Shown here: one piece after another, positions 1-16,179 of the stretch | How the letters are laid out: each line of letters starts with the position of its first letter | Numbering within the stretch: the stretch's first letter is position 1 | Source of the DNA: Oscillospiraceae bacterium | GTDB taxonomy: Bacteria; Bacillota; Clostridia; Oscillospirales; CAG-272 | Reading direction: 5' to 3' | Length of the DNA stretch: 64,000 nt | Assembly (NCBI GenBank): GCA_015063325.1 | Contig: SVUK01000006.1 | Location: 67,239-131,238, forward strand | Notes under the pieces: model-generated | Told to the model about the DNA's origin: nothing | What the model saw: only the letters and a program-made list of their open reading frames with translations | Database searches by the model: none | Program-made: the position numbers and the translations under genes

Positions 1-1
1 G

Positions 2-1234
2 GTGTTCGCCGATAAAATTCTGCACAAGGGGGAGCAGATCGGCTCTTGCTTCCAACTGAATTTCATTCAGCAGAAAAGTAAGCGTATCGACTTTTTGCAA
101 GAGGTCGATCAGTTCTTCTTTCCAAAGTTCAATTTCCTTTTTCTTTTCCGGATCTTCCAATCCGCCTCTGCGAATGGAACGTCGGATTAAACGGGTGTAA
201 CCGATAATCCGCGCCTTGTCTTCCACTGCGCGAATTGTTTGCTCGTCGGTTGTTCCAAGGTAAGCGGAAAGCGTTTTTTTCCAAAAAACGGTTGCGGTTT
301 CAAAATCGAATCCCTGGAATTTGATGATGTTCTTATGATTGTATTCAGAAAAACCGATATACGCATTGAACATACTGCCCAACTCAAAAATCGGGTGTCC
401 GACCGCAAGGGTATCCATGTCGATAATCAGCACTTCATCGCCTTGCAATTCCAAATTTTTGGTGTGATAGTCGCCGTGAATCATTGTATCGGTATGGGGA
501 ACTGTCTGCACCAATTTCACCAGCTTTTCGCCGAGATCAGCCGGTAGATAATCGCGCACGAATTTTGCCCAGTCAAGCGCGGTTTCTTTCATATCGGGCA
601 GTTTTCCTGCCGGAACGTTGGTTCCGTGTATTTTTTTGAGCATTTTTACGTATTCATCAACGCACCAGTCCATTTTATCCGGCTCGGTGGAGAGAATTTT
701 AGAGAAAGAGCGCGCGTTTAGCAGTTCAAAAACAGAGCCATAACTTTCGCCTACTTTAACAACGTCGTAGGAAATTGCAGTTGGAATTCCGAGAATCAAA
801 GCCAACTTGGCAACCTCGCGCTCATGTTGAATATCCGAAAGCGCGTCGGCGTTGTTGTAGACCTTTACCACGTTATCCTTATCAATGCGGTAAATAGTTC
901 CGTTTGCACCGCGACCGATTTCCTCGCACCCCTCCACCGAAACGGTACGGTATGCTTTTTCCACCGGCATCATTTCGGTAAAGCCTGTCATTTCCAAAAT
1001 GTCGTAAACGTCCGCGTTGACCTCTGTAATGCACAGAGACGGGTATGATTTTTTGACGCGCAAAATGACACGCAGACCGGCGCTGGAGATGTACTCCAGT
1101 TTTTTGGCATTCAGAACAATGCTGACGGAACGGTCTTCCGGCAGTTTTGCAACAATCTCCTGCTCCACTTGGGCTGCGTTGCCCGAATCAATTCTTCCGC
1201 AAAGTTCAATCGTCATTTTTTCTTCGTTTTGCAT
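2..1234 (-). CDS. STAS (anti-sigma-antagonist-like) domain fused to an APH/choline-kinase-fold phosphotransferase domain. The 3' end runs off the window, and the gene is absent from the supplied ORF track because it is open-ended.
   Basis: Hand translation of the minus strand. ATG at 1234-1232 is preceded by GGAGA. N-terminus reads MQNEEKMTIELCGRIDSGNAAQVEQEI...KKLEYISSAGLRVILRV (STAS, Ser50/51). It continues with GRGANGTIYRI, HGDYHTKN (res 253-260) and IIDMD (270-274), which match a kinase catalytic loop and metal-binding Asp. No stop codon down to position 2. Confidence 0.8.
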   Translation of the reverse strand, partial: MQNEEKMTIELCGRIDSGNAAQVEQEIVAKLPEDRSVSIVLNAKKLEYISSAGLRVILRVKKSYPSLCITEVNADVYDILEMTGFTEMMPVEKAYRTVSVEGCEEIGRGANGTIYRIDKDNVVKVYNNADALSDIQHEREVAKLALILGIPTAISYDVVKVGESYGSVFELLNARSFSKILSTEPDKMDWCVDEYVKMLKKIHGTNVPAGKLPDMKETALDWAKFVRDYLPADLGEKLVKLVQTVPHTDTMIHGDYHTKNLELQGDEVLIIDMDTLAVGHPIFELGSMFNAYIGFSEYNHKNIIKFQGFDFETATVFWKKTLSAYLGTTDEQTIRAVEDKARIIGYTRLIRRSIRRGGLEDPEKKKEIELWKEELIDLLQKVDTLTFLLNEIQLEARADLLPLVQNFIGEH

Positions 1235-1310
1235 AGCAATTCTCCATTTTTTGGATTTATATCTATTCTATCATATTTTTTTTGATTTTTCAACTTTTTC
1301 TGCTAAATTA

Positions 1311-1339
1311 TTGAAATGAAAAATAAAATATGCTATAAT
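1311..1339 (+). promoter_or_regulatory. Sigma-A-type promoter for the P-type ATPase gene
   Basis: TTGAAA (1311-1316), 17-nt spacer, TATAAT (1334-1339). Lies 45 nt upstream of the ATG at 1384. Confidence 0.5.
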
Positions 1340-1383
1340 GTGTAGGCTGCCTTAATTATTTGCTTCAAAAAAAGGAGGAAGAC

Positions 1384-4300
1384 ATGAAAAAAAGAAAACA
1401 GCGTGCGTCCATCGAGCGCATTTGTCCCGACTTTCAAAAGGGACTGACGCAGGAGCAGGTCAACGAGCGCGTTCAAAAAGGGTACACCAACGTTGCCGAC
1501 GATCCCAACGAGAAGGGACCGCTGAAGATTGTTGCCGGCAACCTGTTCACCTTTTTCAACGTGGTTTTGTTTTCCATTGCTCTGTTGTTTATCGTTTTTA
1601 TCATCTACCTGAAGGCGTCCGGGCATTCGGAAATTGCCGATAAGTATTTCGGGTTTACCAAGTTCGTATTCCTGATCCCGGCAATTATGAACGTTGGAAT
1701 GGGGACGTTTCAGGAGATCAAAAGTTTAAAAGTTATTAAAAAACTTCGTATTGTTACCGAATCCAAGGCAAAAGTTGTTCGCAACGGGGAAACGATCCGG
1801 ATCGACGCCAGCGGAATTGTGCTGGACGACATCGTTTCGGTTTCCGCAGGCGATCAGGCCTCCGCCGACCTGACGGTGCTGGACGGCGAAGTATTCGTGG
1901 ACGAATCCATGCTGACCGGTGAAGCAGACCATGTGAAAAAATGCGTCGGTGATCAGATTCTTTCCGGTTCTTCCATTATTGTTGGTTCGGCGCATTGCCG
2001 CGCCGTTGCCGTTGGTAACGATACATATGCCGCCGAATTGACCAAGAAGGTCAAGAGCGGTACGCGCCACAAATCCGAGCTGATGACTTCCATTATGAAG
2101 ATCATCAAAATCCTGACCGTTGGGTTGTGCATTGCGCAAATCACCGTACTGACGACCATGGCAATCAAAATTGTTGCCACCGGCGCCGATGCCGCAATTT
2201 GGGGCGAGCTTGCACCGTTGGATTTGAAAAATCCCGTATCGTGGGCGATTTTGGCGGTTACGGGCGGAACCTACGGAATCGGTATGATTCCTACCGGCTT
2301 GGTGCTGACGGCGTCGGTTACCATGATGGTTTCGATTGCACAGCTGACCAAAAAGCAAACGCTGATTCAAGAGCTGTATTCTTTGGAAAACCTTTCCCGT
2401 GTGGACGTGATTTGTCTGGATAAAACCGGAACGCTGACCGACGGTACCATGACAGTTGCCGATGTGAAGGCCTTCGTTCCCATGGAGGAGGTGGAGCGCC
2501 ACGCACGCGCGCTGATGGCGTCCCAGGGCGAACGCAACGCCACCGCCGAGGCGATTTACCAGCGGTTTGGTATTGACGAGAACGCTTCCTATAAAGAAAA
2601 GATTCCGTTTAACAGCGCGGTCAAGTATTCCGGCTTGGTTTATAACGACGGCAAGCGCCTTTTGATGGGTGCGCCGGAATATCTGCTTTCCAAGGACGAC
2701 GAGCGGCTCTCCTTTGCCGCCGATTGCGCCAAGGAAGGCAAGCGCGTGATCGCCCTGACGTTGGATGGCGAGCTGGTTGCCTTTTTCGTTATTGAAGACC
2801 ATATCCGCGATACCGCGCCGGATACCCTGAAATTCTTCCGTGAAAACGGCGTTACCGTGAAAGTCATTTCGGGTGATAACCCCCTTACCGTTTCCAAAAT
2901 TGCCGAGCAGTGCGGCATTAAGTTTGCAGATCGTTACATCTCGCTGGAGGGTGTTCCGCTGGAACAAATTCCCGAAATTTGCGAGGACTACACCGTATTC
3001 GCCCGTGTAACACCCGAGCAGAAGGAAGCGCTTGTTACTGCGTTGCAGGCGAAAGGACACAAGGTTGCCATGACCGGTGATGGTGTAAACGATATTCTTG
3101 CGCTTCGCAAATCGGATAGCTCCATTACCTTTGCAAAGGCGACCGAAGCGGCAAAATCCTGCTCCGATGTTGTTTTGCTGGATAATGATTTTTCTCACCT
3201 CAAAGAGGTGGTCGGCGAAGGTCGCCGCGTTATCAGCAACATTCAAAAAACCGCTGTTCTGTATTTGATGAAATCGATTGCAGTTTTCATCTTTGCCTTT
3301 GCGCTGATCCCGTTTGCAAGAGGGCAGATGAACCTTACGGTGGAAAACTTGTATATGCTGGAGGCCGCTGTCATCGGTACGGGCGGATTCCTGCTCTCGC
3401 TGGAGCCGATCCGCAAACCGATCGTTGGCTCGTTTATGAAGAATATTCTGACGCAGGCGGTTGCCGCAGGCGTTCTGGTTTCGGTCGGTATTTTGTTGCC
3501 GCTGTTGCTCTACGCTGTTCCGCAGGCACTCGGCGCGGCGCCGATCATCAGTGAAACGAGCGTTCGCACGATGATGACGATCCTCGTCAGCCTTGCAGGT
3601 TTTGTCGTTCTGTTTTCCATGTGCCTGCCGTTCAACAAATATCGTGCCATCACCGTTACGGCGTTGGTTGCCGTTGCCGCCATTCTCGGCTTTATGCTGC
3701 CGGCTTCCTATATCGGCGGTCAGACCATCGGCGTTGATATGGTGAAATTTGACGCCGCGGCAGGGCAAACCATTTTTGATTCCCAGCTGATGCACGAAAT
3801 GTTCCAGCCTTGGAACTCCGCCGCTGTCAAGGACCTGTTTTCGGATCAGGAGAACTTCGTCATTCTGCGGTTGTTCCTCTACGTTGCTGTTCCCGTCTTC
3901 ATTTTGATCCGCTTTGCCATTGAGAATGCCAACAGAAGAAATTACGGCAAAGACGTCAAAAAGAACCGTTCCTTCCGCATTGGCAGAAGATTGACGCTTG
4001 CCTCCGGTTTTGTGCTGATCCTGCACGCCGTCCTTTCGGCGGTGGAATTGACCTCCGCTTCTATGGCGGTTCCGATCAGTGCACGCTACCATATCGGCGA
4101 GGGCGTTTCTCTTGCTATCAACATTGCTTTCGTCGTCCTTCATCTTGCAATCGGTTATATCGGTTACAAGGTTTGGAAGGACCCGACCAAAAAGATGCTC
4201 CGCATCGCGTTCGGTGCGGCGATCGTTCTGTTGGTTATCACGATTGTCAGCATGGTCCTTTCCGGACAGATCATTACCAGAACGAACGACGTTTTAATGA

Positions 4301-4407
4301 TCATCGACAGTGTGCTGGTTTTGATTGCTTCGGCTGCGTATATCACCGGAGCTTCCATCATTCGTGCCCAGTACAATCTCGGACTTCTTAAACCGAGAGA
4401 CGCTTGA
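1384..4407 (+). CDS. Cation-translocating P-type ATPase of an atypical clade, with a C-terminal membrane extension (1007 aa)
   Basis: DKTGTLT phosphorylation motif and TGDGVNDILAL hinge. TGEA replaces TGES, and M4 reads IPTGL instead of PEGL. About 170 extra C-terminal residues form about 4 hydrophobic segments. Start at ATG 1384 after AAAGGAGGA; the track start at 1360 is an upstream TTG. Confidence 0.85.
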   Translation: MKKRKQRASIERICPDFQKGLTQEQVNERVQKGYTNVADDPNEKGPLKIVAGNLFTFFNVVLFSIALLFIVFIIYLKASGHSEIADKYFGFTKFVFLIPAIMNVGMGTFQEIKSLKVIKKLRIVTESKAKVVRNGETIRIDASGIVLDDIVSVSAGDQASADLTVLDGEVFVDESMLTGEADHVKKCVGDQILSGSSIIVGSAHCRAVAVGNDTYAAELTKKVKSGTRHKSELMTSIMKIIKILTVGLCIAQITVLTTMAIKIVATGADAAIWGELAPLDLKNPVSWAILAVTGGTYGIGMIPTGLVLTASVTMMVSIAQLTKKQTLIQELYSLENLSRVDVICLDKTGTLTDGTMTVADVKAFVPMEEVERHARALMASQGERNATAEAIYQRFGIDENASYKEKIPFNSAVKYSGLVYNDGKRLLMGAPEYLLSKDDERLSFAADCAKEGKRVIALTLDGELVAFFVIEDHIRDTAPDTLKFFRENGVTVKVISGDNPLTVSKIAEQCGIKFADRYISLEGVPLEQIPEICEDYTVFARVTPEQKEALVTALQAKGHKVAMTGDGVNDILALRKSDSSITFAKATEAAKSCSDVVLLDNDFSHLKEVVGEGRRVISNIQKTAVLYLMKSIAVFIFAFALIPFARGQMNLTVENLYMLEAAVIGTGGFLLSLEPIRKPIVGSFMKNILTQAVAAGVLVSVGILLPLLLYAVPQALGAAPIISETSVRTMMTILVSLAGFVVLFSMCLPFNKYRAITVTALVAVAAILGFMLPASYIGGQTIGVDMVKFDAAAGQTIFDSQLMHEMFQPWNSAAVKDLFSDQENFVILRLFLYVAVPVFILIRFAIENANRRNYGKDVKKNRSFRIGRRLTLASGFVLILHAVLSAVELTSASMAVPISARYHIGEGVSLAINIAFVVLHLAIGYIGYKVWKDPTKKMLRIAFGAAIVLLVITIVSMVLSGQIITRTNDVLMIIDSVLVLIASAAYITGASIIRAQYNLGLLKPRDA

Positions 4408-4420
4408 AAGTGATAACATA

Positions 4421-4467
4421 AAAAGGAACAGCCCAAAGCATTGCAATGCTTTGGGCTGTTCCTTTTT
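4421..4467. terminator. Bidirectional rho-independent terminator between the convergent ATPase and PP2C genes
   Basis: aaaaGGAACAGCCCAAAGCATTgcAATGCTTTGGGCTGTTCCtttttt: 18-bp perfect stem flanked by an A-run and a T-run. Confidence 0.8.
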
Positions 4468-4474
4468 TGTTTGG

Positions 4475-5938
4475 TTATTGCTTTCCTTTATATTCTAAGC
4501 AGAGCATGGTCAAATCGTCAAATTGCTCGGCATCTTTTACAAATGCGTCAACCGAAGAACGCAAATGGTTCAGGGTGTCTGCAGGTGACGCTTCACAGTT
4601 TTGATTGAGCGCGGCGAGCATACGGTCGGCGCCGAACAATTCGTTTTGCGCGTTGGTTGCTTCGGGGACCCCATCGGTATACAGGAGAAGCTTTGCGCCC
4701 GGTTCCAGCCGGAGCTCGTATTCTTTATATTTGACGCCGTCCATTCCGCCAATCACAAATCCGTGCTTATCCTTTACAAGCTCAAAGTTTCCGTTTGCCT
4801 GCTTGAGAACGGGGTATTCGTGCCCTGCGTTTGCGGCTGTCAGTTTTCCGGTAGAGATTTCCAAAATGCCGATCCAAACGGTAACAAACATTTCCTCGCG
4901 GTTGTTCGAGCAAATGGCGGCGTTGGTATCGGTCAGAATTTGCGCCGGGGATTTTCCCATCATGGCGTTGTTTGCCAAAATGATTTTGGAAGCCATCATA
5001 AAGAGTGCGGCGGGAACGCCCTTGCCCGAAACGTCGGCCATCACCATGCAAAGGTGATCGTCGTCAACGAGAAAGAAGTCGTAAAAGTCGCCGCCAACTT
5101 CTTTGGCAGGATTCATGGAAGCAAAAATGTCAAATTCCGATCTTTCGGGGAAGGGTGGGAAGATGTTCGGCAGCATACTGGACTGAATGCTGGACGCCAT
5201 GTTGAGTTCGTTTTCAATTCGGGAAGTTTCCAACTGTTGTTTTGCGTATTTGTCGTTTTGATTTTGAATAATGACCGAGAACATGTAAACCGATGACAGA
5301 ACGGTTGCAAAAATAAGAAATTGGAACTTACCCTTTCCCAGCGTTTGAAGAATAATTGCCGGAATCGGGGATATTAAATAGATCCAAAATGCCGAATTGA
5401 CGCGCTTGTCAATCTTTTTGCGACCCATAAACAGCAGAACAGCATCGGTAATCAACATGTTGACCGGGCAAACGTAGGAAAGGAAAATCAGTTTGCCGGC
5501 AACATACCGGTTTTCATCATTAAATTGATAAATCAAACCGTTCGGCGCGCAAGCGATTAAAATAACAATGTGTATGAAGAGAAATGCATATAAAAGAATT
5601 GCCGCTCGAATGGTTGCTTTCTTTTTCAGCTGCGCAACGGCAAGAACAAGAATCGACATCGTATGCGCCATAAATCCGGCGGAAAGAAATTCCGCAAACG
5701 TGATGATATAAAGCGCAATACGTGCGCCCTCGCCGGCGCGTCCGTTCAAAAGCTCCCGGGCAAGATGCGTGGAAATATAGAAAAGAATCAAAAGAAAGAA
5801 AAACTGAAAGTAACGCCGCACCTCTTTGCGCAAATGCACGGAGGAGGTGATGTGCATAAAGCAAAGACTGCAAATGCCGATACCGCCGGCAGTGAACAAC
5901 GCGTTTACAAGATGCGCCGATAGAATGAAATCTACCAT
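4475..5938 (-). CDS. Polytopic membrane protein with a C-terminal SpoIIE/RsbU-type PP2C serine phosphatase domain
   Basis: About 230 aa with about 7 hydrophobic helices, followed by the PP2C hallmarks GGDFYDFF, MADVSGKGVPAALFM, GHEYP and LYTDGVPEA. SD AGAGG lies upstream of the ATG at 5938. Confidence 0.9.
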   Translation of the reverse strand: MVDFILSAHLVNALFTAGGIGICSLCFMHITSSVHLRKEVRRYFQFFFLLILFYISTHLARELLNGRAGEGARIALYIITFAEFLSAGFMAHTMSILVLAVAQLKKKATIRAAILLYAFLFIHIVILIACAPNGLIYQFNDENRYVAGKLIFLSYVCPVNMLITDAVLLFMGRKKIDKRVNSAFWIYLISPIPAIILQTLGKGKFQFLIFATVLSSVYMFSVIIQNQNDKYAKQQLETSRIENELNMASSIQSSMLPNIFPPFPERSEFDIFASMNPAKEVGGDFYDFFLVDDDHLCMVMADVSGKGVPAALFMMASKIILANNAMMGKSPAQILTDTNAAICSNNREEMFVTVWIGILEISTGKLTAANAGHEYPVLKQANGNFELVKDKHGFVIGGMDGVKYKEYELRLEPGAKLLLYTDGVPEATNAQNELFGADRMLAALNQNCEASPADTLNHLRSSVDAFVKDAEQFDDLTMLCLEYKGKQ

Positions 5939-5974
5939 AGATAATTAACCTCTGTTTTTACTTTGCGCGGACGG

Positions 5975-6280
5975 TTATTCAATTGTAAGAATATCCGAAA
6001 ATCCGGTCACTTCAAAAATCTCCATGACGGTTGCGTTGACATGGCAAACCGTCATCTTGCCCTGTCCGTTCATCACTTTTTGGGCGGAGAGCAGAACGCG
6101 CAGTCCTGCCGAGGAGATGTATTCCAGTTTTTCAAAATCCAAAGCAAGTTCTTCCAGCCCGGGAAGAATGGATTGAATCTCTTTTTCCAAATCCGGTGCG
6201 GTCAGCGTATCCAAACGGCCTTCCGCAAAAAGAATTGCCTTTTTTCCTTCGATTGTCTTGTTAATGTTCAGCATGGTCAT
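5975..6280 (-). CDS. Single-domain STAS protein (anti-sigma-factor-antagonist family), 101 aa
   Basis: MTMLNINKTIEGKKAILFAEGRLDTLTAPDLEKEI...FEKLEYISSAGLRVLLSAQ...MEIFEVTGF. The phosphorylatable Ser position is conserved (Ser56/57). GGAGAAA SD lies before the ATG at 6280. The track start at 6442 would overlap the upstream permease gene. Confidence 0.85.
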   Translation of the reverse strand: MTMLNINKTIEGKKAILFAEGRLDTLTAPDLEKEIQSILPGLEELALDFEKLEYISSAGLRVLLSAQKVMNGQGKMTVCHVNATVMEIFEVTGFSDILTIE

Positions 6281-6342
6281 TTTCTCCTGTTTTTGTTTTA
6301 ATTTTTTAATATAATTTTTAGAACCCAAAATGAAAATCAATT

Positions 6343-9255
6343 TTATGCTACATCGGTCAAACGCAGGTTTTTCACCTTTCGCAAAGCGATTGCATTCACG
6401 ATTATGGTAAAGAGAACGGTGATTGCCGCGGCAATACCCCAAGCCAAAATGTCGGGACTGCGTTTGAGCTGCAGGAAGGATTGCTCCAGCGTTCGGACAA
6501 TGCTATAACCGGCGCCTGCGCCTGCGGCAATGCCAAGCAGAATGCCCAAAATGGTTGTGAGCACCGTTTCGCGCAGGATATACCCGATTACCTCTTTTAC
6601 GGTAAAGCCGTTGATGCGCATAACGGTCATTTCCCGTTTCTTTTGCAGGACGTACATATTGGTCAGATTGAGCTGTACCACACCAGCCATGACGCCGGCA
6701 ATAAAGATGAACAAGATCGTTACGATGGTGAGCATGGACATGGAGGTTTCAATCACCGATTTACTCGAATCGGCGTCAAAACTGGATTCAAATCCTTCCA
6801 GCCCACGGAGTTCTTCGCTCAATTTTTCACCGTCCGCTCCATTCAAGCGGATCATGTATGCATTTGCTGTGAAGGGAGTTCCGTACGCTTTTTCATAGTA
6901 GGTGCTGCTCATTGCAAAAGAGCGCCCGATATAACTTTCAAAAATTCCGGCAACACGAACGGTTGCAATGTTCGTTCCGCCCAGCGCAAGATCAAATTCA
7001 CTGCCAACCGAAAGATGACAGGTTTCGGCAATTCTGCGCGGAATCAGAATCCCCCGGTCGGTCGGACGAATGGGTTCTCCGGTTTTCCAGTCATATAAGT
7101 GGTAGTATTTTCCAATCTCTTCAAGATCACCGCAAAGCAGATCGGCAACCTGCAGATCGTCAATCCGGTAGGTTACGGTTGCATTGTAAATCTTTGCCGA
7201 TTCCGCATTTGCGCGGATGATCGCGTCTTGGTAATCGTTGCCGTCGTTTGCGGCGGTTTGGGGATCGTAGCTTACAAGATAGTCGTATTCAATGATTTCG
7301 CCGTACTGCTTATCAACCGAACCGGTCACCGCTGATTTCAGCGTCAGCCCGATGATGACCAATGCACAGCAACCGGCAACGCTGACGATGGTAACCATGA
7401 CGCGCTTGAGGTCGGTGCGCATATTCAAAAGGATCAAACGAGAATAAAGGGAGAGAACGCGTTTGCCTTTCCGTTTTCCAAACGTTTTTTTCTTAACGCC
7501 GGGAGCTTTCGGCTGCATCAGGCTGACGGCGGGCTCGCGCAACAGTTTGCTACAGGCAAACCAAACGGCAAGGACCGCCAAAAGGATTCCAAAGCAGAAA
7601 ACGATTGCCGTTGACCCGGCGACGAAACAGGGCTTGGAAACATCAAAATTATAATAATTGTTAAATCCGTTCAGCAAAAACGGTGCAATGGCGAATCGCG
7701 CTGTCAGAATTCCAAGAAGAATACCGATAGCGGTTGCCGAAACGCCGAAAAAGAGATATTTCGCAAAAATTTCACGGGTGAAAAAGCCGAGCGCTTTGGT
7801 TGTGCCAACCATACCGCGCTGTTCGTCCACCATTTTCCCAACGGTTGCGAAAATGACCAGTGCGCCAACCAAAACGAATAGCAGGGAGAAGGTCATTTTT
7901 AAGTTTGAGAAGTTTGAGCTTCCCACAATCAGTTGTGCGAAACTTGCATTGCCTTTTCCGTCAAACGAGATCCAACGGCAAGGGCGCAGTTCCGCCATTT
8001 TTTGCTTGTAGATTTCCAGCCCTTCGAGGTATTGCACGTGTCCTTCATCCCATTGGTTGCAACCGTCCGAAAGTTCCTGAAAATCTTTCGTATATCCAGC
8101 CGCATAGGTGACGAGCGCATCCCGAACGGCAACCATGTCGTAATCTCCCGTTTCGGTTTTCGGAGCGTCGACTTTTTGCGTGTATTCGTAAACGGCGACC
8201 AACAGTTTTTCCGAAATACTTTCCGAGGAAAGGATTGCTTGAATGATATCTTTTGGCGAGCGACTCAAATCAACGCGAAGATTTTGGGTGATCCAAAGAT
8301 ATTTTGCTGTTTCGTTGGGGTCATCGACATTTGCTTCCTTTTCGGTTGCCCAATGAAACAGTTTATGTTCTTCCGATTGCCTAAAAACGGTTTCAACGAT
8401 ATTTTTCAGCTGATTCCGAATCATTGCTTTAGCGGATTCCAGTTTGTCAAAACCTTCTTCCAGCTGCGCTTTGGAATCGTTGAGTTTCTGTTGCGCGCTC
8501 TCGGTTACTGCTTTATCCCGTTTTGCGGCTGCAGAAACGGCAAGCTCATCGATTTGCTCCTGAACGGCGGCAACCAAGTTTTCATATTTTTCGGAGAAAC
8601 GGTCAATGTTTTCCGGCTTTTCGATGGTGATTTCCGCTTTCATAAAGCAACCTTCCAACGCTTCGTCATCAAAAACGTCCCACATTGTAAGTACGTAGGG
8701 AGCTTCCTGAACGATATTGTTGGAATGATCGGGATGGTTGACAATACCGGTGACAGTGAATTCGGTTTTTTGAAGATAATTCACCTTTTGTCCGGCGGAG
8801 TCGACCAGGGAGATCTTGTCACCCACTTTTATACCGATTTTTTTAGCAAGCGTTTCTTCAAGAACGCATTCGTCAATCGCGGTCGGTAGTCGTCCGTCAT
8901 GGAGTTCAACCCGGTTGATGCGTTGCGTCAGCGAGACAACGCTGATACTTTCACTCGCATTTTGATAGTTGACAACCGCGGATACGGAGCGCACGGTTTC
9001 CACATCGGTTACGCCATTGATTTTCTTCAAATCCTGTACGTCTTCTTCGGAGAACAGCAAGGTGGAAATAATTTCAATATCCCGGAAATTAACGCGGTTG
9101 TAAATATCCGATCCATTCCGGCGCAAACCGGTTGCCGTATAATCAATGCCTAAAAAGGTGGTAACGCCGATCATGGCGATAATGATGATGGAGAGAAACG
9201 AAACTTTTTGTTTCCAAACGTTTCGCAAACAATCTTTTCGTTGTGTCTTTTTCAT
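6343..9255 (-). CDS. ABC transporter permease of MacB/FtsX type, with two FtsX 4-TM modules and a large extracytoplasmic domain (970 aa)
   Basis: N-terminal TM helix, then an extracytoplasmic region of about 430 aa that includes a coiled-coil-like stretch (AAKRDKAVTESAQQKLNDSKAQLEEGFDKLESAKAMIRNQL). FtsX-like TM blocks lie around res 470-590 and 850-970. The start lies 6 nt after the stop of the upstream ATPase gene. Confidence 0.85.
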   Translation of the reverse strand: MKKTQRKDCLRNVWKQKVSFLSIIIIAMIGVTTFLGIDYTATGLRRNGSDIYNRVNFRDIEIISTLLFSEEDVQDLKKINGVTDVETVRSVSAVVNYQNASESISVVSLTQRINRVELHDGRLPTAIDECVLEETLAKKIGIKVGDKISLVDSAGQKVNYLQKTEFTVTGIVNHPDHSNNIVQEAPYVLTMWDVFDDEALEGCFMKAEITIEKPENIDRFSEKYENLVAAVQEQIDELAVSAAAKRDKAVTESAQQKLNDSKAQLEEGFDKLESAKAMIRNQLKNIVETVFRQSEEHKLFHWATEKEANVDDPNETAKYLWITQNLRVDLSRSPKDIIQAILSSESISEKLLVAVYEYTQKVDAPKTETGDYDMVAVRDALVTYAAGYTKDFQELSDGCNQWDEGHVQYLEGLEIYKQKMAELRPCRWISFDGKGNASFAQLIVGSSNFSNLKMTFSLLFVLVGALVIFATVGKMVDEQRGMVGTTKALGFFTREIFAKYLFFGVSATAIGILLGILTARFAIAPFLLNGFNNYYNFDVSKPCFVAGSTAIVFCFGILLAVLAVWFACSKLLREPAVSLMQPKAPGVKKKTFGKRKGKRVLSLYSRLILLNMRTDLKRVMVTIVSVAGCCALVIIGLTLKSAVTGSVDKQYGEIIEYDYLVSYDPQTAANDGNDYQDAIIRANAESAKIYNATVTYRIDDLQVADLLCGDLEEIGKYYHLYDWKTGEPIRPTDRGILIPRRIAETCHLSVGSEFDLALGGTNIATVRVAGIFESYIGRSFAMSSTYYEKAYGTPFTANAYMIRLNGADGEKLSEELRGLEGFESSFDADSSKSVIETSMSMLTIVTILFIFIAGVMAGVVQLNLTNMYVLQKKREMTVMRINGFTVKEVIGYILRETVLTTILGILLGIAAGAGAGYSIVRTLEQSFLQLKRSPDILAWGIAAAITVLFTIIVNAIALRKVKNLRLTDVA

Positions 9256-9261
9256 ATCGCG

Positions 9262-10482
9262 TCACCAAACCAGCTCTTCGGCGTGAACGGGGTGCATATT
9301 TTTCTTGATGCTGGCAATTTTTCCGTTCCGAACCTTGACAACTCGGTCTGCCATTTTCGCAATTTCCGGGTTGTGCGTAACCATCATGACCGTGGTACCG
9401 TTGTTGCGGACGATCTCTTCAATGACTTTCAAAACCTCAATACTTGTGGTGTAGTCGAGCGCCGCAGTCGGTTCGTCGGCAAGGATCAGTTTGGGATTTT
9501 TTACAATGGCGCGCGCAATGGAAACGCGTTGCTGTTGTCCGCCGGACATTTGCCCGGGATAGTTACCTGCTCGCGATTTTAATCCGACTTTATCCAACGC
9601 TTCTTCCGGGGACATGGGGTTGTCGACGAGCTCGGCAATAAATTGTACGTTTTCCAGAGCGGTCAAGTTGGGCATTAAGTTGTAGGATTGGAAGATAAAT
9701 CCAACGTACTTTCTGCGGAAAGCAGTCAATTCTTTGTCGGTGGGGCGCGAAAAATCCTTCCCCTCGATCAAAAGCGTGCCTTCCGTTAAAAAGTCCATAC
9801 CTCCGATGATGTTCATCATGGTGGATTTTCCGCAACCGGATTCTCCCAGTACCACAACGAATTCATTCTTGTAAACTTCCAAATTGATTCCTTTGAGAAC
9901 GCGAGAAACGCCGTCGCCGGAAGGGAACTCTTTGACCACGTCTTTCAGGACAGCAAGAACTTCCTTTTTCTCGCCAAGATCAACCAGCAGTCCCTTTTCG
10001 TCAATGGTAATGGCGGCAAGGGAAGCCATACGTTCGCAGAGTTGAAGCTCTTCTTCATCGTAGGAGCTTTTGTCGGTTTTGTTGACGATTTGGACGCAGC
10101 CGATCACCTCGTGCAGATTGTTCAGCGGCACGCAGATCATGGTCTTCGTTGTCAGACCGTTGTCGTCGAAAACAGAACCGTCAAAACGCGGATCGTTGAG
10201 TGCGTCGGCAATGATGATCGATTTTCCGGTTTTGGTAACAACACCTTCCACGCCCAGTCCGTTCTCAACGGTAATATTGGAAATATCCGCCGGTCCGATA
10301 TGGAACAGGGGGCTGAGACGATCGGTCTTTTTGTCCAAAATCCAAATCGCTCCGGCAGCGCTTTTCAATGTTTTTACAATAATTTCCAAACTTCCGGAAA
10401 GGGCGTCTTCCAGGTTATCCACCTCCAAAAGCTGTTCCATAATTTTCCAGGTCGCTTGTGCAAATCGTTTTTCTTCCGGCAT
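9262..10482 (-). CDS. GAF domain fused to a MacB/LolD-type ABC ATP-binding domain (406 aa)
   Basis: Res about 15-160 look GAF-like ([10 protein letters not shown]...[24 protein letters not shown]...ICVPL...[10 protein letters not shown]). Walker A is GESGCGKST (213-221), the signature is [14 protein letters not shown], and Walker B is [17 protein letters not shown] lies before the ATG at 10482. Confidence 0.9.
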
Positions 10483-10567
10483 GATTTTCTCCTTTTTAGG
10501 TGTAAATAAAAAATAGAGAATATAGATGAGTGATTTGGGTCTATAAAATTTAAGAAAGTCGTTTTGG

Positions 10568-10790
10568 ATTATCTTAAATCTGTAATTTTGCTTTTCAGCA
10601 GATCGACTTGTTCATCGGTCATTCCCATACCAACCAACAGTTGGTGCGCATACGATGAAAGATCCACTTTTGTAAAGTCGCTTTTTGTGTTCATTCCGGT
10701 CATATAAGCGATCATTTCGTCAATGTTCTTTTCCTTGATGATCTGATAGCGCTCGGGATCAAACGTAAGAAAAAGGAACGAATATAAAAT
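10568..10790 (-). pseudogene. Possible 5'-truncated gene remnant or small ORF of unknown family
   Basis: An open frame of about 70 codons reads ...TFDPERYQIIKEKNIDEMIAYMTGMNTKSDFTKVDLSSYAHQLLVGMGMTDEQVDLLKSKITDLR*. There is no in-frame ATG/GTG/TTG before the internal EM(ATG), and no convincing SD. It is below the length cut-off of the ORF track. Confidence 0.25.
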
Positions 10791-10874
10791 TATTATAACA
10801 TAGACTTATTTATTTTTCAATGTTTTTCGGTCAAATTTTTTGCAAATCTAAATGTTGTTTTTTTGAAAAAAGTA

Positions 10875-10903
10875 TTGACAACGCCGACGGAATATGATAT
10901 GAT
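10875..10903 (+). promoter_or_regulatory. Sigma-A-type promoter for tRNA-Ser
   Basis: TTGACA (10875-10880), 17-nt spacer, TATGAT (10898-10903). Lies about 15 nt upstream of the tRNA 5' end. Confidence 0.6.
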
Positions 10904-10917
10904 ATACAAGTCGGCAC

Positions 10918-11010
10918 GGAGAGGTGGCTGAGCTGGTCTAAGGCGCACGACTGGAAATCGTGTGTTCGGCTAATAACCGACCGCGAGTTCGAATCTCGCC
11001 CTCTCCGCCA
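10918..11010 (+). tRNA. tRNA-Ser (anticodon GGA) with a long variable arm and encoded CCA
   Basis: Acceptor GGAGAGG/CCTCTCC. Anticodon stem CACGA/TCGTG with loop CTGGAAA. Variable arm TCGG-CTAATAA-CCGA. T-arm GCGAG-TTCGAAT-CTCGC. Discriminator G followed by CCA. Confidence 0.95.
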
Positions 11011-11011
11011 T

Positions 11012-11054
11012 GAAAGAAACCGCTTTTGTCCGGTAGACAAAAGCGGTTTCTTTC
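11012..11054 (+). terminator. Long perfect hairpin directly after the tRNA (terminator-like)
   Basis: GAAAGAAACCGCTTTTGTC-cggta-GACAAAAGCGGTTTCTTTC: 19-bp stem. The downstream T-tract is weak. Confidence 0.6.
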
Positions 11055-11055
11055 A

Positions 11056-11227
11056 GTTATATTCGCCTGCGGCGAGTGATATTGGGCTTTGCCCAGTTAT
11101 ATTCGCTTCGCGAGTGATATTGCGCTTCGCGCAGTTTAGAGGCGAATATAATATAACTTCTCGCGTCAGCGAGAAATATAACGGTCCCGAAGGGACAATA
11201 TCACTGCGCCGCAGGCGCAATATCACT
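11056..11227. repeat. Ordered array of eight G(T/G)(T/G)ATATT 8-mers (4 forward, 4 inverted), each followed by a GC-rich mini-hairpin
   Basis: Forward copies: GTTATATT 11056, GTGATATT 11076, GTTATATT 11096, GTGATATT 11114. Inverted copies: ATATAAC 11151, AATATAAC 11175, AATATCAC 11197, AATATCAC 11219. Spacing is 18-25 bp. The spacers are mini-palindromes (TCGCCtgcGGCGA, GGGCtttGCCC, TCGCttcGCGA, GCGCttcGCGC, TTCTCGCgtcaGCGAGAA, GTCCCgaaGGGAC, TGCGCCgcaGGCGCA). Confidence 0.8.
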
Positions 11228-11255
11228 TGATAATTTCACATTTTTATGTTATAAT
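11227..11255 (+). promoter_or_regulatory. Extended -10 sigma-A-type promoter for the HExxH gene
   Basis: TTGATA (11227-11232), 17-nt spacer ending in TGT, TATAAT (11250-11255). It abuts the last 8-mer of the repeat array. Confidence 0.55.
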
Positions 11256-11312
11256 GAACCGTGAAAAGAACTCAACAAATCGTCATTTGTGGAGATAAGG
11301 AGATTTCTAACT

Positions 11313-11774
11313 ATGGAACGAGCGGAAATAACTGCATTGTTTGACAAATACATCAAAAAGCTCCGAATCACACCGGGATGGGATGTTCGGTTAGAATTGG
11401 TTGAAGATCCCTCATGGCGAAAGACCGGCGATTTCAAGATTGATTGTGACGACAGAAAAGCGATCCTGATGCTGAACGTCGTGAACCCAACGCAGGAAAA
11501 CATGGAGGAGGTCATTGTCCATGAGTTGATGCATATCAAAATGTATCCGCTGGATCAGGTCACGGAATCGCTCATTACGAACTGCTTTGAAGAAGGTAGT
11601 GTGGCGAGCAACTTTGCTTATCAGCAGTTTTTCACCGCCCTTGAGCAGACTGTGGAGGAATTGGCAAAATGTTTTCTATATGAATTTGGTGAAGACAAAG
11701 AGTTATCCTATGGCAGATGTCGTAAGGGTAAATCATTCAACGACCTCTATGAGGGTTTGAACAGCATAGACTGA
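11313..11774 (+). CDS. Small HExxH-motif protein (putative minimal zinc metallopeptidase, family not recognised), 153 aa
   Basis: EEVIVHELMHIKMYPLD contains HExxH. GGAGA SD lies 9 nt before the ATG at 11313; the track start at 11289 is an upstream GTG inside the SD. I could not assign a family by eye. Confidence 0.65.
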   Translation: MERAEITALFDKYIKKLRITPGWDVRLELVEDPSWRKTGDFKIDCDDRKAILMLNVVNPTQENMEEVIVHELMHIKMYPLDQVTESLITNCFEEGSVASNFAYQQFFTALEQTVEELAKCFLYEFGEDKELSYGRCRKGKSFNDLYEGLNSID

Positions 11775-12140: not shown

Positions 12141-12168
12141 TATAATAAACGCAGAACAAGCGCTTGTT
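12141..12168 (+). promoter_or_regulatory. Extended -10 element plus a perfect 14-bp palindrome (candidate operator) upstream of the HTH gene
   Basis: TGTTATAAT (-10 at 12141-12146), followed by AACAAGCGCTTGTT (12155-12168). This lies between the -10 and the ATG at 12194. Confidence 0.5.
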
Positions 12169-12193
12169 ACTTTCATTTTCGAGGGAGAAAACT

Positions 12194-13264
12194 ATGAACA
12201 TTTTATTGAGTGTGCAATTAAAAAAACTCCGCAAGGAAAGAGGCAATACGCAGGAGGATCTTGCGAACTATCTCGGCATTTCCACGCAGGCAGTTTCCAA
12301 ATGGGAGCGTGATGAAGGATACCCGGATATCACGCTCCTCCCGGCGATCGCGTCCTATTACAACATCAGTGTGGACGATCTACTCGGCGTGGGTGAAATC
12401 GAGAAAGAGAAAAAGTTGCTTGCATACCGTGAAAAAAACAATGAACTGTTCCGTGACGGAAAAAACTCAGATCGGGTGGCGCTATGGAGAGAAGCCCAAA
12501 AGGAGTTCCCGAACGATCTGTCCGTGCTTTACGATCTGATGTACGCTTTGTCCGCGGCGGATCAAAACGCAAACGCTGACGAGATCATTGCTTGCGGAGA
12601 GAGGATATTAGATGAATCCACGGATCAATCTTTGCGCGGCGGCGCGATCCAATGCTTATGCTACACCTATTACTATGCCAAAAAGGATGCGGAGTCGGCA
12701 AAGAAATACGCAAATATGGCGGACGGTTATTCGGTCACGGTCGATGAAATGATGCCGTGCATTCTGGAAGGAGAGGAAGCGGTCCGATATTGTCAGTTCA
12801 ACATACAACATCTTTTTGATATGGTCGGATTGAACGTGCGTATCATGTGTCAAAAGGGCGATTATTCGCCGGAGGAGCATATCAAAGCGCGCGAATTTCT
12901 TATTCATTGCTTCGATCTGCTTTATTCGGACGGAAACTGCGGTTTTTATCACTGCCGATATTCGGAGATCTATCAGGAAATGGCGGCAAACTTTTTAAAG
13001 CTTAACGACGCGGCAAATATGTTTGAGTATCTTGAAAAATCTGCTGAGCACGCGATCAGGTATGATACGCTGAAGGATGGACAGTTCACTTCTTTCTTCG
13101 TAAATCGGATCGACTTTTCTTCCATACATACGGTCAAGGATTATACTGAAAATCAATCGGGGTTGCTTTTGAAATCCTTGAAAGGAGAGAAGTTCAAACA
13201 GTTTGAAAAGGATCTCCGCATGGCGAAGATCGTTAATATGCTGACACCCGTGGCGATTTTCTGA
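12194..13264 (+). CDS. XRE-family HTH regulator with a long helical-repeat (TPR-like) C-terminal domain; RNPP-like architecture, 356 aa
   Basis: N-terminus [65 protein letters not shown] is a classic Cro/C1 HTH. The remaining about 290 aa are helical-repeat-like. GAGGGAGAA SD lies before the ATG at 12194. Confidence 0.85.
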
Positions 13265-13467: not shown

Positions 13468-16179
13468 TTAATACCCGTTTTTTTTGCCTCGTGCGCGCCA
13501 AAGCAGTTTGCGAATGAAATCCGCCGGGAAGACCGAGAGCGAGAATAGCATGGTCAAACCCAGTTCGCGCGGTAACAACGGCGCCGTTCGCAAAACATTT
13601 CCGCCAAGATAAACAAACACAATCTGCAAGATCAATACTGCGAGCATGATGACGATGAAAACCGGATTTTTATGTAATCCGGCAAACAGTTTGATGCGGT
13701 CGGTGCGCGCGTTGAAACAGTTAAACACCGAGCAGAAGATAAAGAAAGCGAAAAACGCCGTTAACAGGTAGATGTTGTCGGGCGCATAGCGGAAAAGGGA
13801 AGTGACGAGCGGATTTTTTAGGAACAGCAAAGAGATTGCAACGGTAAAACCGCTTAACCAGGCAATTTGATTGACCATATATCGGTTCAAAATTCCTTCT
13901 TCCCGTTTCTTTGGCGGTTCTTTCATATAGTCGGCGCGCGGAGGCTCTCCGGCAAAGGCGAGTCCGCCCAACGTATCCATAATCAAATTGATCCAAAGCA
14001 TTTGCACCACCGTGACCGGGGAATCAATTCCGAGGAAGGGGCAAATCATGGTAACACCCACTGCCGAAAAGTTCATGGTCAATTGCAGAGTAATGAATTT
14101 GCGAATGCTTTTAAAAATTGTTCTTCCGTAAAGCACCGCTCGAACGATGGAGGCAAGATTGTTATCTAAGATAATAATATCGCCGGCATCCTTTGCCACC
14201 TGTGTTCCCGATCCCATAGCAAACCCAATGTCGGCGCGGCGCAAGGCCGGCGCGTCGTTGATCCCGTCACCGGTCATTCCGGTTACCAAACCGGCTTCCT
14301 GCGCCACGCGAACCAATCGGCTTTTATCGGTCGGAAGTGCTCGGGCAACCACTGCAAGACGCGGCAAAAGCTCGCGCAGGCGGACATCGGAAAGGTGCGA
14401 AAGCTCGGTGCTATCAAGAATCAGGTCATTTTTTTTGTTCAAGATGCCGCATGAGGACGCAATCGAGCCGGCGGTTTCGCGGTTGTCACCGGTAATCATC
14501 ACAACGTGAACACCTGCCTGCTGCAAAGACCGAACCGAGGATGCCGCCTCAATCCGGACTGGGTCGGAAAGGCGCAAAAGGCAGAGCAGGGTGAGGGAAC
14601 CGCGAATCCCCGAGGCGTGAGAGGGAGCCGGAGTATCCTCGTCGGAAATGGCAACGGCAAGAACACGTGCGCCGCTCTTTGTCCATTGATCCGCCTGCCG
14701 TTGTGCGGCATTTTTCTGGAAAGGGATTCGTTTTCCGTCAATTGTCATGGCGGCGTGCACAAAGGAGAGAATTTTTTCCGGCGCTCCGGTTAAAAAGGTT
14801 ATGTTCTGTTTGCCGCGATAGGTCACGGCAGCGTATTTGCGAGCACTGTCAAACGGGAGCCTTGATTTTACGACCGTATTCGGCGGCGCTTTTTCGCCCA
14901 AAACCGAGAGCAGCAAAGCGCGGTCGGTCGCGTTTCCGCCGAGCGGAACGGGAAGCCCTTTTTCATCGGTACCAATCGTACTTTCTCCGCCGCGCATGGC
15001 GAGCAAAAAGGGAAGATAGGCGCCCGTACGCCGATCGAGAAAAGTCATGGGCGGCATGGCTTCTCCGGGAGAAAACCAGATTTCACCCACACGCATTTTT
15101 CCTTCGGTCAGTGTTCCGGTTTTGTCGGTAAACAATAGATTCATGCTTCCTGCCGCTTCAATTCCCACCGGCCGACGAACGAGTACCTGATCCTTCACCA
15201 TACGCCGGATATTGGAGGAAAGTACCACGGCAACCATCATCGGCAGTCCTTCTGGAACAGCGGTAACTACCACCGTTAAGCCGAGTGTGAATGCGTGGAA
15301 GAGCTTGGAAAGAAGGTAGGGGGTGTCGGTAATCTTCATTAGAATAATTTCGCGGCGCATACCGCTGTCGATCAAAAAAACGTGGAAAAGATATGCCAGC
15401 GCAACCAGAACGGCGGCAATATAACCGAGTACGCTGATTTGACGGGCAAGTTTTGCAAGACGGAGTTTGAGAGGACTGTCGCGCTGCTCCAGCTGAACTT
15501 CTTTCGTGATTTCGCCGAGGAAGGTTTGGTCCCCCACCGAGAGAACGCCCATCTCTCCGCCGCCAGAGGTTACCGTCGATCCGCGAAATAGCGCGGAGGG
15601 GGAGTCAGGAAGAAGTTTTTCGCCGCGAACGGGAAACTTCGGAACGTCGTGACTTTCCCCGGTCATGGAGGATTGGTCGGCAGTCAGATTGCCGCGCAAA
15701 AGGAATCCGTCCGCAGGAATCAATTCACCCTGGGAAAGGAGAACGATATCTCCAACAACAATTTCGCCAAGCGGTATTTCCGAAACAACACCCGAGCGGC
15801 GTACGCGGCAACGTACGTTTGCGGTTTCTGCCGAAAGACGGGCAAACGCACGCTCCGAAGAGCGCTCGGAGAGGGTGGAAATCAGCGTTGCCAAAAAAAC
15901 GGCGGCGGCAATTCCGGCTGTTTCCACCCAGTCTGCCGTTTTGAAAAGTAAAATCAAGTTGACGGCAAGCGCGGCAAGAAGAATGCGGATGACGGGATCG
16001 GAGAGGTTTCCGAAGAACTGCCGTAAAAAGGATTTTTGGGGGCGGCGGGAAAGCAGATTGTCTCCGTGCTTTTCACGGGATACAAGAACCTCGCGCGCCG
16101 AAAGTCCGCTGTCGGCAAAATCGGAGGCGGAGCGAGGATCGGTTTTTGGTATGGTCGAATTCAAAGTAGCGTCCTCCAA
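13468..16179 (-). CDS. Calcium-translocating P-type ATPase (type IIA/IIB-like)
   Basis: TGES (SMTGESHDV), PEGLP in M4 (TAVPEGLPMMV), DKTGTLT, and TGDGINDAPALRRADIGFAMG. The true start is probably the TTG at 16164, 7 nt after GGAGG; the track start at 16179 lies inside the SD. Confidence 0.9.
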   Translation of the reverse strand: MEDATLNSTIPKTDPRSASDFADSGLSAREVLVSREKHGDNLLSRRPQKSFLRQFFGNLSDPVIRILLAALAVNLILLFKTADWVETAGIAAAVFLATLISTLSERSSERAFARLSAETANVRCRVRRSGVVSEIPLGEIVVGDIVLLSQGELIPADGFLLRGNLTADQSSMTGESHDVPKFPVRGEKLLPDSPSALFRGSTVTSGGGEMGVLSVGDQTFLGEITKEVQLEQRDSPLKLRLAKLARQISVLGYIAAVLVALAYLFHVFLIDSGMRREIILMKITDTPYLLSKLFHAFTLGLTVVVTAVPEGLPMMVAVVLSSNIRRMVKDQVLVRRPVGIEAAGSMNLLFTDKTGTLTEGKMRVGEIWFSPGEAMPPMTFLDRRTGAYLPFLLAMRGGESTIGTDEKGLPVPLGGNATDRALLLSVLGEKAPPNTVVKSRLPFDSARKYAAVTYRGKQNITFLTGAPEKILSFVHAAMTIDGKRIPFQKNAAQRQADQWTKSGARVLAVAISDEDTPAPSHASGIRGSLTLLCLLRLSDPVRIEAASSVRSLQQAGVHVVMITGDNRETAGSIASSCGILNKKNDLILDSTELSHLSDVRLRELLPRLAVVARALPTDKSRLVRVAQEAGLVTGMTGDGINDAPALRRADIGFAMGSGTQVAKDAGDIIILDNNLASIVRAVLYGRTIFKSIRKFITLQLTMNFSAVGVTMICPFLGIDSPVTVVQMLWINLIMDTLGGLAFAGEPPRADYMKEPPKKREEGILNRYMVNQIAWLSGFTVAISLLFLKNPLVTSLFRYAPDNIYLLTAFFAFFIFCSVFNCFNARTDRIKLFAGLHKNPVFIVIMLAVLILQIVFVYLGGNVLRTAPLLPRELGLTMLFSLSVFPADFIRKLLWRARGKKNGY

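Follow-up and report, generated by a model that had tools for sequence, protein, structure and literature searches.

A GAF-tagged MacB-type exporter as a possible output of a STAS/PP2C partner switch in an Oscillospiraceae bacterium

What do a STAS protein and a membrane PP2C phosphatase control when they are encoded together with an ABC transporter and no sigma factor gene lies close by? This question is raised by a cluster of four genes on contig SVUK01000006.1 of an Oscillospiraceae bacterium (assembly GCA_015063325.1), of which a stretch of 64,000 nucleotides (nt) was analysed (positions 67,239 to 131,238 of the forward strand; called the window here, with coordinates counted from its first letter). 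The four open reading frames (ORFs) lie on the minus strand and encode, in this order, an ABC ATPase carrying an N-terminal GAF domain (GAF-ATPase, 406 amino acids (aa), 9262-10482), a double-module permease of the FtsX/MacB type (970 aa, 6343-9255), a single-domain STAS protein (99-101 aa, 5975-6280, or with its start at 6274) and a membrane PP2C of the SpoIIE/RsbU type (487 aa, 4475-5938). Our tentative answer, held with somewhat less than even confidence, is that the MacB-type (type VII) exporter is itself the regulated output, receiving both a cyclic-nucleotide signal through the GAF domain and the dephosphorylated STAS protein. STAS, RsbW-like and PP2C genes without a sigma factor are common in bacteria and their targets are mostly unknown; the locus provides a candidate target, namely an ABC exporter.

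In the proposed mechanism the N-terminal GAF domain of the ATPase would take up a small-molecule signal, most likely a cyclic nucleotide. The membrane PP2C would strip the phosphate from Ser57 of the STAS protein on a cue from the membrane or the envelope, and an RsbW-like GHKL kinase, in this genome a STAS::APH::kinase fusion encoded 3.2 kb away, would phosphorylate the same residue. The dephosphorylated STAS protein would then bind the GAF-ATPase and alter the transport activity, in the way of SiaC, HsbA and All4160 or of the MlaB-MlaF pair. The dephosphorylated STAS is proposed as the effector because STAS is the most constant neighbour of the transporter genes, no sigma factor gene is linked to them, and in the non-sigma switches it is the STAS protein that acts on the target. 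A second transporter input is the simplest reading of the partner-switch genes, since a sister lineage places a cyclase gene beside the same core. We infer the STAS-transporter binding, the phosphorylation of Ser57, the GAF ligand, the direction of the regulation and the substrate. Possible but more doubtful is the narrower claim that a phospho-switched STAS protein regulates a MacB-type exporter reversibly, as one of its subunits, with the ATPase in addition sensing a cyclic nucleotide through its GAF domain.

An earlier note on this DNA, made from the letters alone, had described the four same-strand genes as an apparent operon with gaps of 6, 62 and 36 nt and a strong bidirectional terminator after the last gene. 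The genes and gaps were recovered exactly, and a 20-pair stem at 4420-4467 (9 G-C pairs, T-runs on both strands) scores as an intrinsic terminator in both directions; it is common to the operon and a convergent P-type ATPase gene (1360-4407, plus strand). No terminator of comparable strength was found inside the cluster. About 310 nt before the first start codon lies a candidate sigma-70-type promoter, TTGAAA-17-TATAAT with an upstream TG (10792-10820, minus strand, 11 of 12 consensus matches), which is the best minus-strand promoter match in 1-11300. Because of the gaps, the promoter, the end terminator and the lack of a comparable internal one, the four genes are likely read as one transcript, and the layout fits a single operon. 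Neither a riboswitch nor any leader RNA came up in an Rfam search of the operon and its leader. All four proteins have intact domains and catalytic motifs, which is in favour of a functional system of the proposed kind.

In the GAF-ATPase, Pfam places GAF at residues 23-161 and ABC_tran (PF00005, E 6e-34) at 196-340. The nucleotide-binding domain (NBD) extends from about 178 to 394, followed by a conserved C-terminal tail; its top NCBIfam models are DevA, MacB and LolD, all under their equivalog cut-offs. The motifs GESGCGKST (213-221), ILADEPT (333-339) and THN (369-371) are present. The Pfam and motif searches thus agree with the earlier division of the protein into a GAF domain of about 160 aa and a MacB/LolD-type NBD with its Walker motif at 213-221. 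Only the ABC signature had been misread, the one textual error of the note: it is [14 protein letters not shown] at 312-325 and not of the form LSGG...

Compared with solved structures, the GAF domain of the window is closest to cyclic-nucleotide (cNMP)-type GAF domains (5w10, PDE5, CyaB2, PDE10 and PDE2, E 6e-14 to 1e-8). Most of the top 21 solved matches (E 6e-14 to 2e-4) belong to PDE or cyclase GAF domains, the exceptions being 4mcw (an HD-type phosphohydrolase) and 3e0y; heme-binding and other GAF types gave E values above 0.005. The family shares the consensus NK-x5-F/Y-x3-D/E (NKFDE-type), which reads [11 protein letters not shown] in the window. Within the rumen lineage the GAF domain is about as conserved as the NBD (80.5% and 83.3%, respectively). 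Because of the similarity to cNMP-type GAF domains, the NK...F/Y...D/E motif and the NBD-level conservation, the GAF domain is probably a cyclic-nucleotide receiver. Among 50%-identity cluster representatives, which together with a profile search served to find distant relatives, the GAF-ATPase fusions cohere as a single family whose members go down to 35% identity and have the conserved C-terminal tail in common. Other domains, too, are found N-terminal to NBDs of this subfamily: a response-regulator receiver (REC), an amidohydrolase and a family 8 glycosyltransferase (GT8) domain (cluster representatives P0259, P0231 and P0237, respectively). A Rosetta-stone fusion of STAS or kinase to this NBD subfamily was sought, and only REC, amidohydrolase, GT8 and unassigned N-terminal domains were met.

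The permease consists of two FtsX and two MacB_PCD domains according to Pfam, in line with the two FtsX-type modules noticed before. Hydropathy, from which the transmembrane (TM) topology of both permease and phosphatase was taken, gave 8 TM segments for the permease, with two regions outside the cytoplasm at 38-453 (about 415 aa) and 638-841 (about 200 aa). The first contains a coiled-coil-like stretch and corresponds to the region of about 430 aa with a coiled coil that had been described; the second comes in addition. No MacA/HlyD-type adaptor was found in the recurrent neighbour clusters scanned with Pfam or in the flanks of the window. As a speculation, the recurrent AMP-binding/NRPS-like (nonribosomal peptide synthetase-like), Acyl_transf_3 and MatE neighbours of the relatives hint at the export of an acylated small molecule or an envelope component.

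The STAS protein matches the Pfam family STAS and exceeds the cut-off of the anti-sigma antagonist model TIGR00377 (68.8 bits, cut-off 53.45). Gene callers placed its start at the second ATG (6274, 99 aa) in the locus L099, an identical region on a 205-kb contig. Its nearest solved structures are SpoIIAA and RsbV. In the motif LEYISSAGLRV (52-62), Ser57 aligns with the phospho-serine of SpoIIAA ('yiSSaGL' versus 'fmDSSGL'), so that the phosphorylatable serine for which the protein had been singled out is indeed retained. The PP2C carries a SpoIIE/PP2C domain (PF07228, 292-483, E 2e-49) with the metal-binding Asp motifs GGDFYDFF (282-289), ADVSGKG (301-307) and YTDG (420-423), and FDDLT is present as well. 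About 6-7 TM segments with short loops between them lie within residues 1-224; Pfam, hydropathy and motif search together bear out the earlier description of a protein with about 7 TM helices and a SpoIIE/RsbU-type PP2C domain. The N-terminal sensor part of this protein varies even among close relatives, with 7 TM segments in the window, dCache_1 and HAMP in the locus L006 and HAMP elsewhere.

The earlier note had seen neither a sigma nor an anti-sigma factor. The former holds, as no sigma factor gene was found within 10 kb on either side of the cluster; the only one in the window encodes a primary-sigma-like protein of 391 aa (45013-46188), 35 kb away. The latter does not, for an RsbW-like kinase domain is encoded 3.2 kb from the phosphatase gene. 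The gene begins on the minus strand at 1234, with a promoter-like site of its own at 1293-1265, and was absent from the ORF list because it runs off the window start (<1-1234). The part in the window encodes STAS and APH domains and agrees at 100% identity with residues 1-411 of the 523-aa protein P0388. The C-terminal domain of P0388, which lies beyond the window start, is HATPase_c_2 (PF13581) with an RsbW/SpoIIAB-type kinase fold and has its best matches among RsbW models. In L099, where the fusion gene is at 10001-11572, the order is GAF-ATPase, permease, STAS, PP2C, convergent P-type ATPase, STAS::APH::HATPase_c_2 and a PHP protein. The fusion is the candidate STAS kinase of the window genome. 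Relatives hold a stand-alone RsbW-like kinase of 143 aa or a PP2C::kinase fusion inside the operon, and N-box, G1 and G2 are all preserved in the kinase domains. All scores were below the SpoIIAA, RsbW and SpoIIE equivalog cut-offs. STAS protein, PP2C and kinase of a partner switch are hence all found, and a sigma factor is not. The fusion type itself (about 520 aa) has more than 8000 database relatives, and its middle domain resembles TIGR02172; its make-up suggests a partner switch with a kinase domain for small molecules or proteins at its centre.

Is the proximity of these genes to the transporter more than an accident of one genome? GAF-ATPase relatives number thousands in metagenomes, most of them from uncultured rumen Clostridia. 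One scan of species-representative genomes yielded 80 loci with a GAF-ATPase 75-93% identical to that of the window, including one complete genome, that of the cultured isolate Ruminococcus sp. JL13D9 (L080). The ORFs called there were compared with the window proteins and with domains met along the way. The permease accompanies the ATPase in all but one locus (L020, where no permease ORF was detected), and often there are two permease genes. The commonest neighbour families after these two are STAS, PP2C and RsbW-like kinase domains. Single-domain STAS genes reach a density of 3.4 per 10 kb at less than 500 nt from the pair, compared with 0-0.3 per 10 kb at 4-10 kb (at least 10-fold), and 47 of the 48 STAS genes within 3 kb are co-oriented with it. 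STAS is directly adjacent in 22 species or loci, 12 times upstream and 10 times downstream, with gaps of 9-220 nt. Neighbours were counted in the 44 loci where the pair has 3 kb or more on each side; a partner-switch gene lies within 3 kb in 27 of them (STAS in 23, PP2C in 14, kinase in 12).

On the GAF-ATPase tree this linkage maps to three subclades. The first, which includes the Ruminococcus isolate, has the order STAS, stand-alone 143-aa RsbW-like kinase, PP2C, ATPase, permease; the first three genes overlap at their stop and start codons. The second, to which the window belongs, shows ATPase, permease, STAS and usually PP2C, sometimes directly followed by STAS::APH::kinase (L006, L048). 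In the third, STAS with or without a PP2C::kinase fusion precedes ATPase and permease. According to a STAS tree the three architectures draw on different STAS lineages, the window protein falling into the 'after-permease' lineage. Since the STAS lineages differ between the contexts, the proximity was reached or kept via at least three separate rearrangements. This evidence is stronger than simple inherited synteny and weaker than dozens of independent events would be. The co-occurrence of STAS and PP2C with the GAF-ABC genes, on which the earlier proposal had staked its case, is accordingly positive within the lineage, with STAS concentrated beside the pair, co-oriented and in three arrangements; it holds for the three rumen subclades (at least 75% identity) and fails in clades at 50-63% identity.

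The more distant clades provide a further link of the transporter to signalling. The profile search revealed a second large GAF-ATPase clade at 51-55% identity, including Pseudoflavonifractor phocaeensis and Acetatifactor. In 5 of 5 distinct places sampled there, a CHASE2::Guanylate_cyc gene is found one to four genes from the GAF-ATPase (L084, 16100-17911; L087, 14368-16143; L096, 10527-12362; L097, 5115-6938; L098, 14360-16195), mostly downstream and once divergent upstream. It often occurs with a FecR-domain gene and sometimes with a gene of the metallo-beta-lactamase fold; a STAS gene was found at none of the five places. Because the CHASE2 cyclase adjoins the core and the GAF domain resembles cNMP-binding GAF domains, the transporter of this clade is likely the target of the adjacent membrane cyclase, i.e. 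a cyclic-nucleotide-gated exporter. In other clades, at 50-63% identity, the two core genes stand alone. A scan of metagenome contigs with the distant GAF-ATPase alignment picked up generic NBD patterns (at least 80 loci, NBD-only matches) and was uninformative on the linkage of GAF and STAS.

Several observations weigh against the exporter as the output of the switch. The linkage follows the phylogeny, amounting to about three events plus variations and not to dozens, and the STAS link is limited to three subclades of one rumen lineage with GAF-ATPases at least 75% identical to that of the window. About 17 of the 80 loci (basal subclades) and all sampled clades at 50-63% identity are without nearby partner-switch genes, so STAS is not an obligatory subunit. 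No cyclase was found in the window, and a search of the 80 loci gave only one weak match (L082). The STAS protein scores 17.1 bits on the model mlaB_1 (cut-off 90) and is not an MlaB orthologue. Finally, the kinase nearest the operon belongs to a separate transcription unit, has its own STAS domain and may be a self-contained switch. The restriction to one lineage also suits the view that the genes are merely co-regulated, without physical coupling: STAS, PP2C and kinase would serve another target, an unlinked sigma factor or a kinase-fusion enzyme, and their proximity would stem from a common stress or envelope regulon or from narrow-lineage synteny. The genomes hold many STAS, kinase and PP2C paralogues, as in L014 with its four tandem STAS genes, and at least one relative (L067) has a canonical spoIIAB-sigF-like pair. 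Nevertheless we regard this explanation as unlikely, given the steep and local enrichment of STAS (at least 10-fold between 4-10 kb and less than 500 nt), its nearly uniform orientation, the overlapping stop and start codons in the five-gene operons, an adjacency that arose three times, from different STAS lineages and on both sides of the core, and a module that comes with no sigma gene. L067 is the only related locus with a sigF-like gene (6555-7668, minus strand), with a spoIIAB-like kinase gene as its neighbour and the GAF-ATPase about 2 kb away; this appears to be an ordinary sporulation operon that is there by chance, and the lineage thus appears to own a canonical switch as well.

The direction of the signal could also be reversed. 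FtsX-type transporters of Firmicutes are known to sense for kinases that have no sensor domains of their own (BceAB-BceS), and by analogy the PP2C might read the conformational cycle of the permease in the membrane and dephosphorylate STAS, which would signal elsewhere, for example to proteins with RsbW-like domains such as STAS::APH::kinase or MatE::kinase. The short loops between the TM segments of the window PP2C are like those of an intramembrane sensor, PP2C and permease share one operon, and many RsbW-like-domain proteins able to receive STAS are encoded nearby in relatives. However, the PP2C is less constant than STAS (14 versus 23 of the 44 loci), STAS stands alone beside the transporter genes in many loci, and elsewhere the PP2C has its own dCache_1/HAMP sensor domain. 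Moreover, the permease is not BceB-like, and a signal-receiving role of the transporter is suggested by its GAF domain and by the sister clade with the cyclase, so that a sensor role is rather improbable. Very doubtful is a canonical topology in which the transporter simply replaces the sigma factor, the RsbW-like kinase inhibiting the GAF-ATPase until dephosphorylated STAS captures the kinase without ever touching the transporter. It would suit the tight STAS-kinase-PP2C-[GAF-ATPase]-permease operon of one subclade, with its stand-alone kinase and no sigma gene, and the RsbW-like domains fused to MatE and AMP-binding proteins demonstrate that this domain can sit on non-sigma proteins. But the operon of the window and its subclade is without a stand-alone kinase, the nearest one being fused to STAS and APH in another transcription unit, and the kinase, with 12 of 44 loci, is the neighbour most often missing. 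In the known non-sigma systems, furthermore, the effector is the STAS protein (SiaC, HsbA, SypA, All4160). The exporter as target of dephosphorylated STAS is also favoured by partner-switch domains on non-sigma proteins elsewhere in the lineage (MatE::HATPase_c_2, AMP-binding::HATPase_c_2, STAS::AMP-binding).

How does the locus relate to known systems? With RsbV-RsbW-RsbU and SpoIIAA-SpoIIAB-SpoIIE it shares a single-domain STAS protein with the serine, a SpoIIE/RsbU-family PP2C and a GHKL kinase domain of the RsbW-like type; unlike in these, the module has an ABC transporter and not a sigma factor encoded with it, and the kinase is fused or stand-alone depending on the species. Non-sigma targets on record for such switches are diguanylate cyclases, FlgM, a biofilm factor and a glycosyltransferase. 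The combination of kinase and PP2C genes with a STAS protein acting on a non-sigma target would place the locus next to SiaABCD and HsbR-HsbA of Pseudomonas, SypE-SypA of Vibrio and HenR-All4160, and the PP2C::kinase fusions of relatives recall SypE. HenR-All4160 of Anabaena, reported to be a partner switch that directly regulates an enzyme (preprint 10.64898/2026.04.08.717354), serves as a precedent for the exporter as output. In contrast to all these, the proposed target here is a transporter.

To our knowledge, MlaB-MlaF is the only established case of a STAS protein as accessory subunit of an ABC NBD. As in this part of the MlaFEDB lipid transporter, a small STAS protein is encoded with an ABC ATPase in the window, but it is of the anti-sigma-antagonist type, the permease is FtsX/MacB-type and not MlaE, phosphatase and kinases are present, and the host belongs to the Gram-positive-type Clostridia. 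The transporter itself resembles the type VII systems MacB, LolCDE, FtsEX and DevCA in its NBD, nearest to DevA, MacB and LolD, its FtsX four-helix modules and its MacB_PCD domains. It differs from them by two FtsX modules in one chain of 970 aa, the first extracytoplasmic domain of 415 aa, the GAF domain on the NBD and the lack of an adaptor among the conserved neighbours. ABC ATPases with ligand-binding regulatory domains are known from OpuCA (CBS, c-di-AMP), MetN and MalK. The GAF-ATPase likewise has a putative small-molecule sensor fused to its NBD, of a cNMP type as in CyaB2, PDE2/5/10 and Lcd1, yet the sensor is N-terminal, a GAF domain and on a MacB-type exporter. BceAB-BceRS is similar in that an FtsX-type transporter of Bacillota is encoded with a membrane signalling enzyme almost without extracytoplasmic loops; there, BceB has 10 TM segments and one large extracytoplasmic domain instead of 8 with two extracytoplasmic domains, and histidine kinase and response regulator take the place of PP2C and STAS. 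No histidine kinase or response regulator gene was found next to the cluster, L037 being the only relative in which such a pair was seen. Judged by the features compared, the locus belongs to none of the MlaFB, BceAB and tripartite MacAB types. PADLOC gave generic ABC-ATPase matches only and nothing for the other proteins, so that a known defence system was rejected. In summary, the parts are all of known kinds (partner-switch trio, type VII ABC transporter, cNMP-type GAF domain), and for their combination no published description was found; in the open-access literature this applies both to GAF-fused MacB/FtsX-type ATPases and to a partner switch or STAS protein wired to an ABC transporter.

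Among the relatives, partner-switch domains occur in further arrangements. MATE transporters with a C-terminal RsbW-like HATPase_c_2 domain are encoded in 11 related loci, often beside STAS and PP2C genes (among them L034, 11-1564, and L010, L026, L047-L049, L055, L060 and L080), and represent a second transporter type tied to these domains. In some relatives a STAS::AMP-binding enzyme followed by an Acyl_transf_3 gene comes directly after the permease (L001, 14903-17904; L007, 8958-11959). An AMP-binding enzyme in L051 (16072-18090) has a weak C-terminal HATPase_c_2 match of 17 bits (Pfam cut-off 27.4). The four tandem single-domain STAS genes of L014 (14742-19419) lie between the permease and PP2C genes.

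The surroundings of the cluster in the window contain P-type cation ATPase genes on both flanks, the convergent one mentioned above and a second at 13468-16179 (minus strand). Upstream, a 366-aa HTH_3 (XRE-type) regulator (12164-13264) and a 161-aa ORF without Pfam match (11289-11774) are encoded. None of these genes recurs beside the transporter in relatives. The leader holds a small ORF (10572-10763, minus strand; FDPERYQ...TDLR, 48 aa counted from the ATG) that resembles a piece of a protein; L099, the identical locus, was the only relative to match it, and it may be a gene remnant. Neither this ORF nor a 53-aa gene in the leader of L001 was accepted as a precursor peptide or part of the system, as the small leader ORFs are not conserved between loci. 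Just 3' of tRNA-Ser(GGA) (10918-11010) lies a match to Gut-1 RNA (Rfam RF01706, 11054-11125, plus strand; 60.8 bits, gathering score 50), followed by a second, inverted and weaker copy (37.7 bits, 11146-11228, minus strand); short direct and inverted repeats are abundant around them.

If the exporter is indeed the output, a new output class would be added to the partner-switching systems, a transporter instead of a sigma factor, and the idea of a STAS protein as ABC accessory subunit known from MlaB would gain a counterpart in Gram-positive-type bacteria that is regulated by phosphorylation. With the cyclase-linked sister clade included, this would be the first bacterial family of cyclic-nucleotide-gated ABC transporters. 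Experiments are feasible in the cultured Ruminococcus sp. JL13D9, which has the tight five-gene operon. The varying neighbours of the GAF-tagged MacB-type ATPases, CHASE2 cyclase in one clade and partner-switch genes in the other, suggest that these exporters are gated post-translationally by second messengers and phosphorylation, and the lineage would then reuse partner-switch domains on transporters and enzymes alike, as in the MatE::kinase, AMP-binding::kinase and STAS::AMP-binding proteins.

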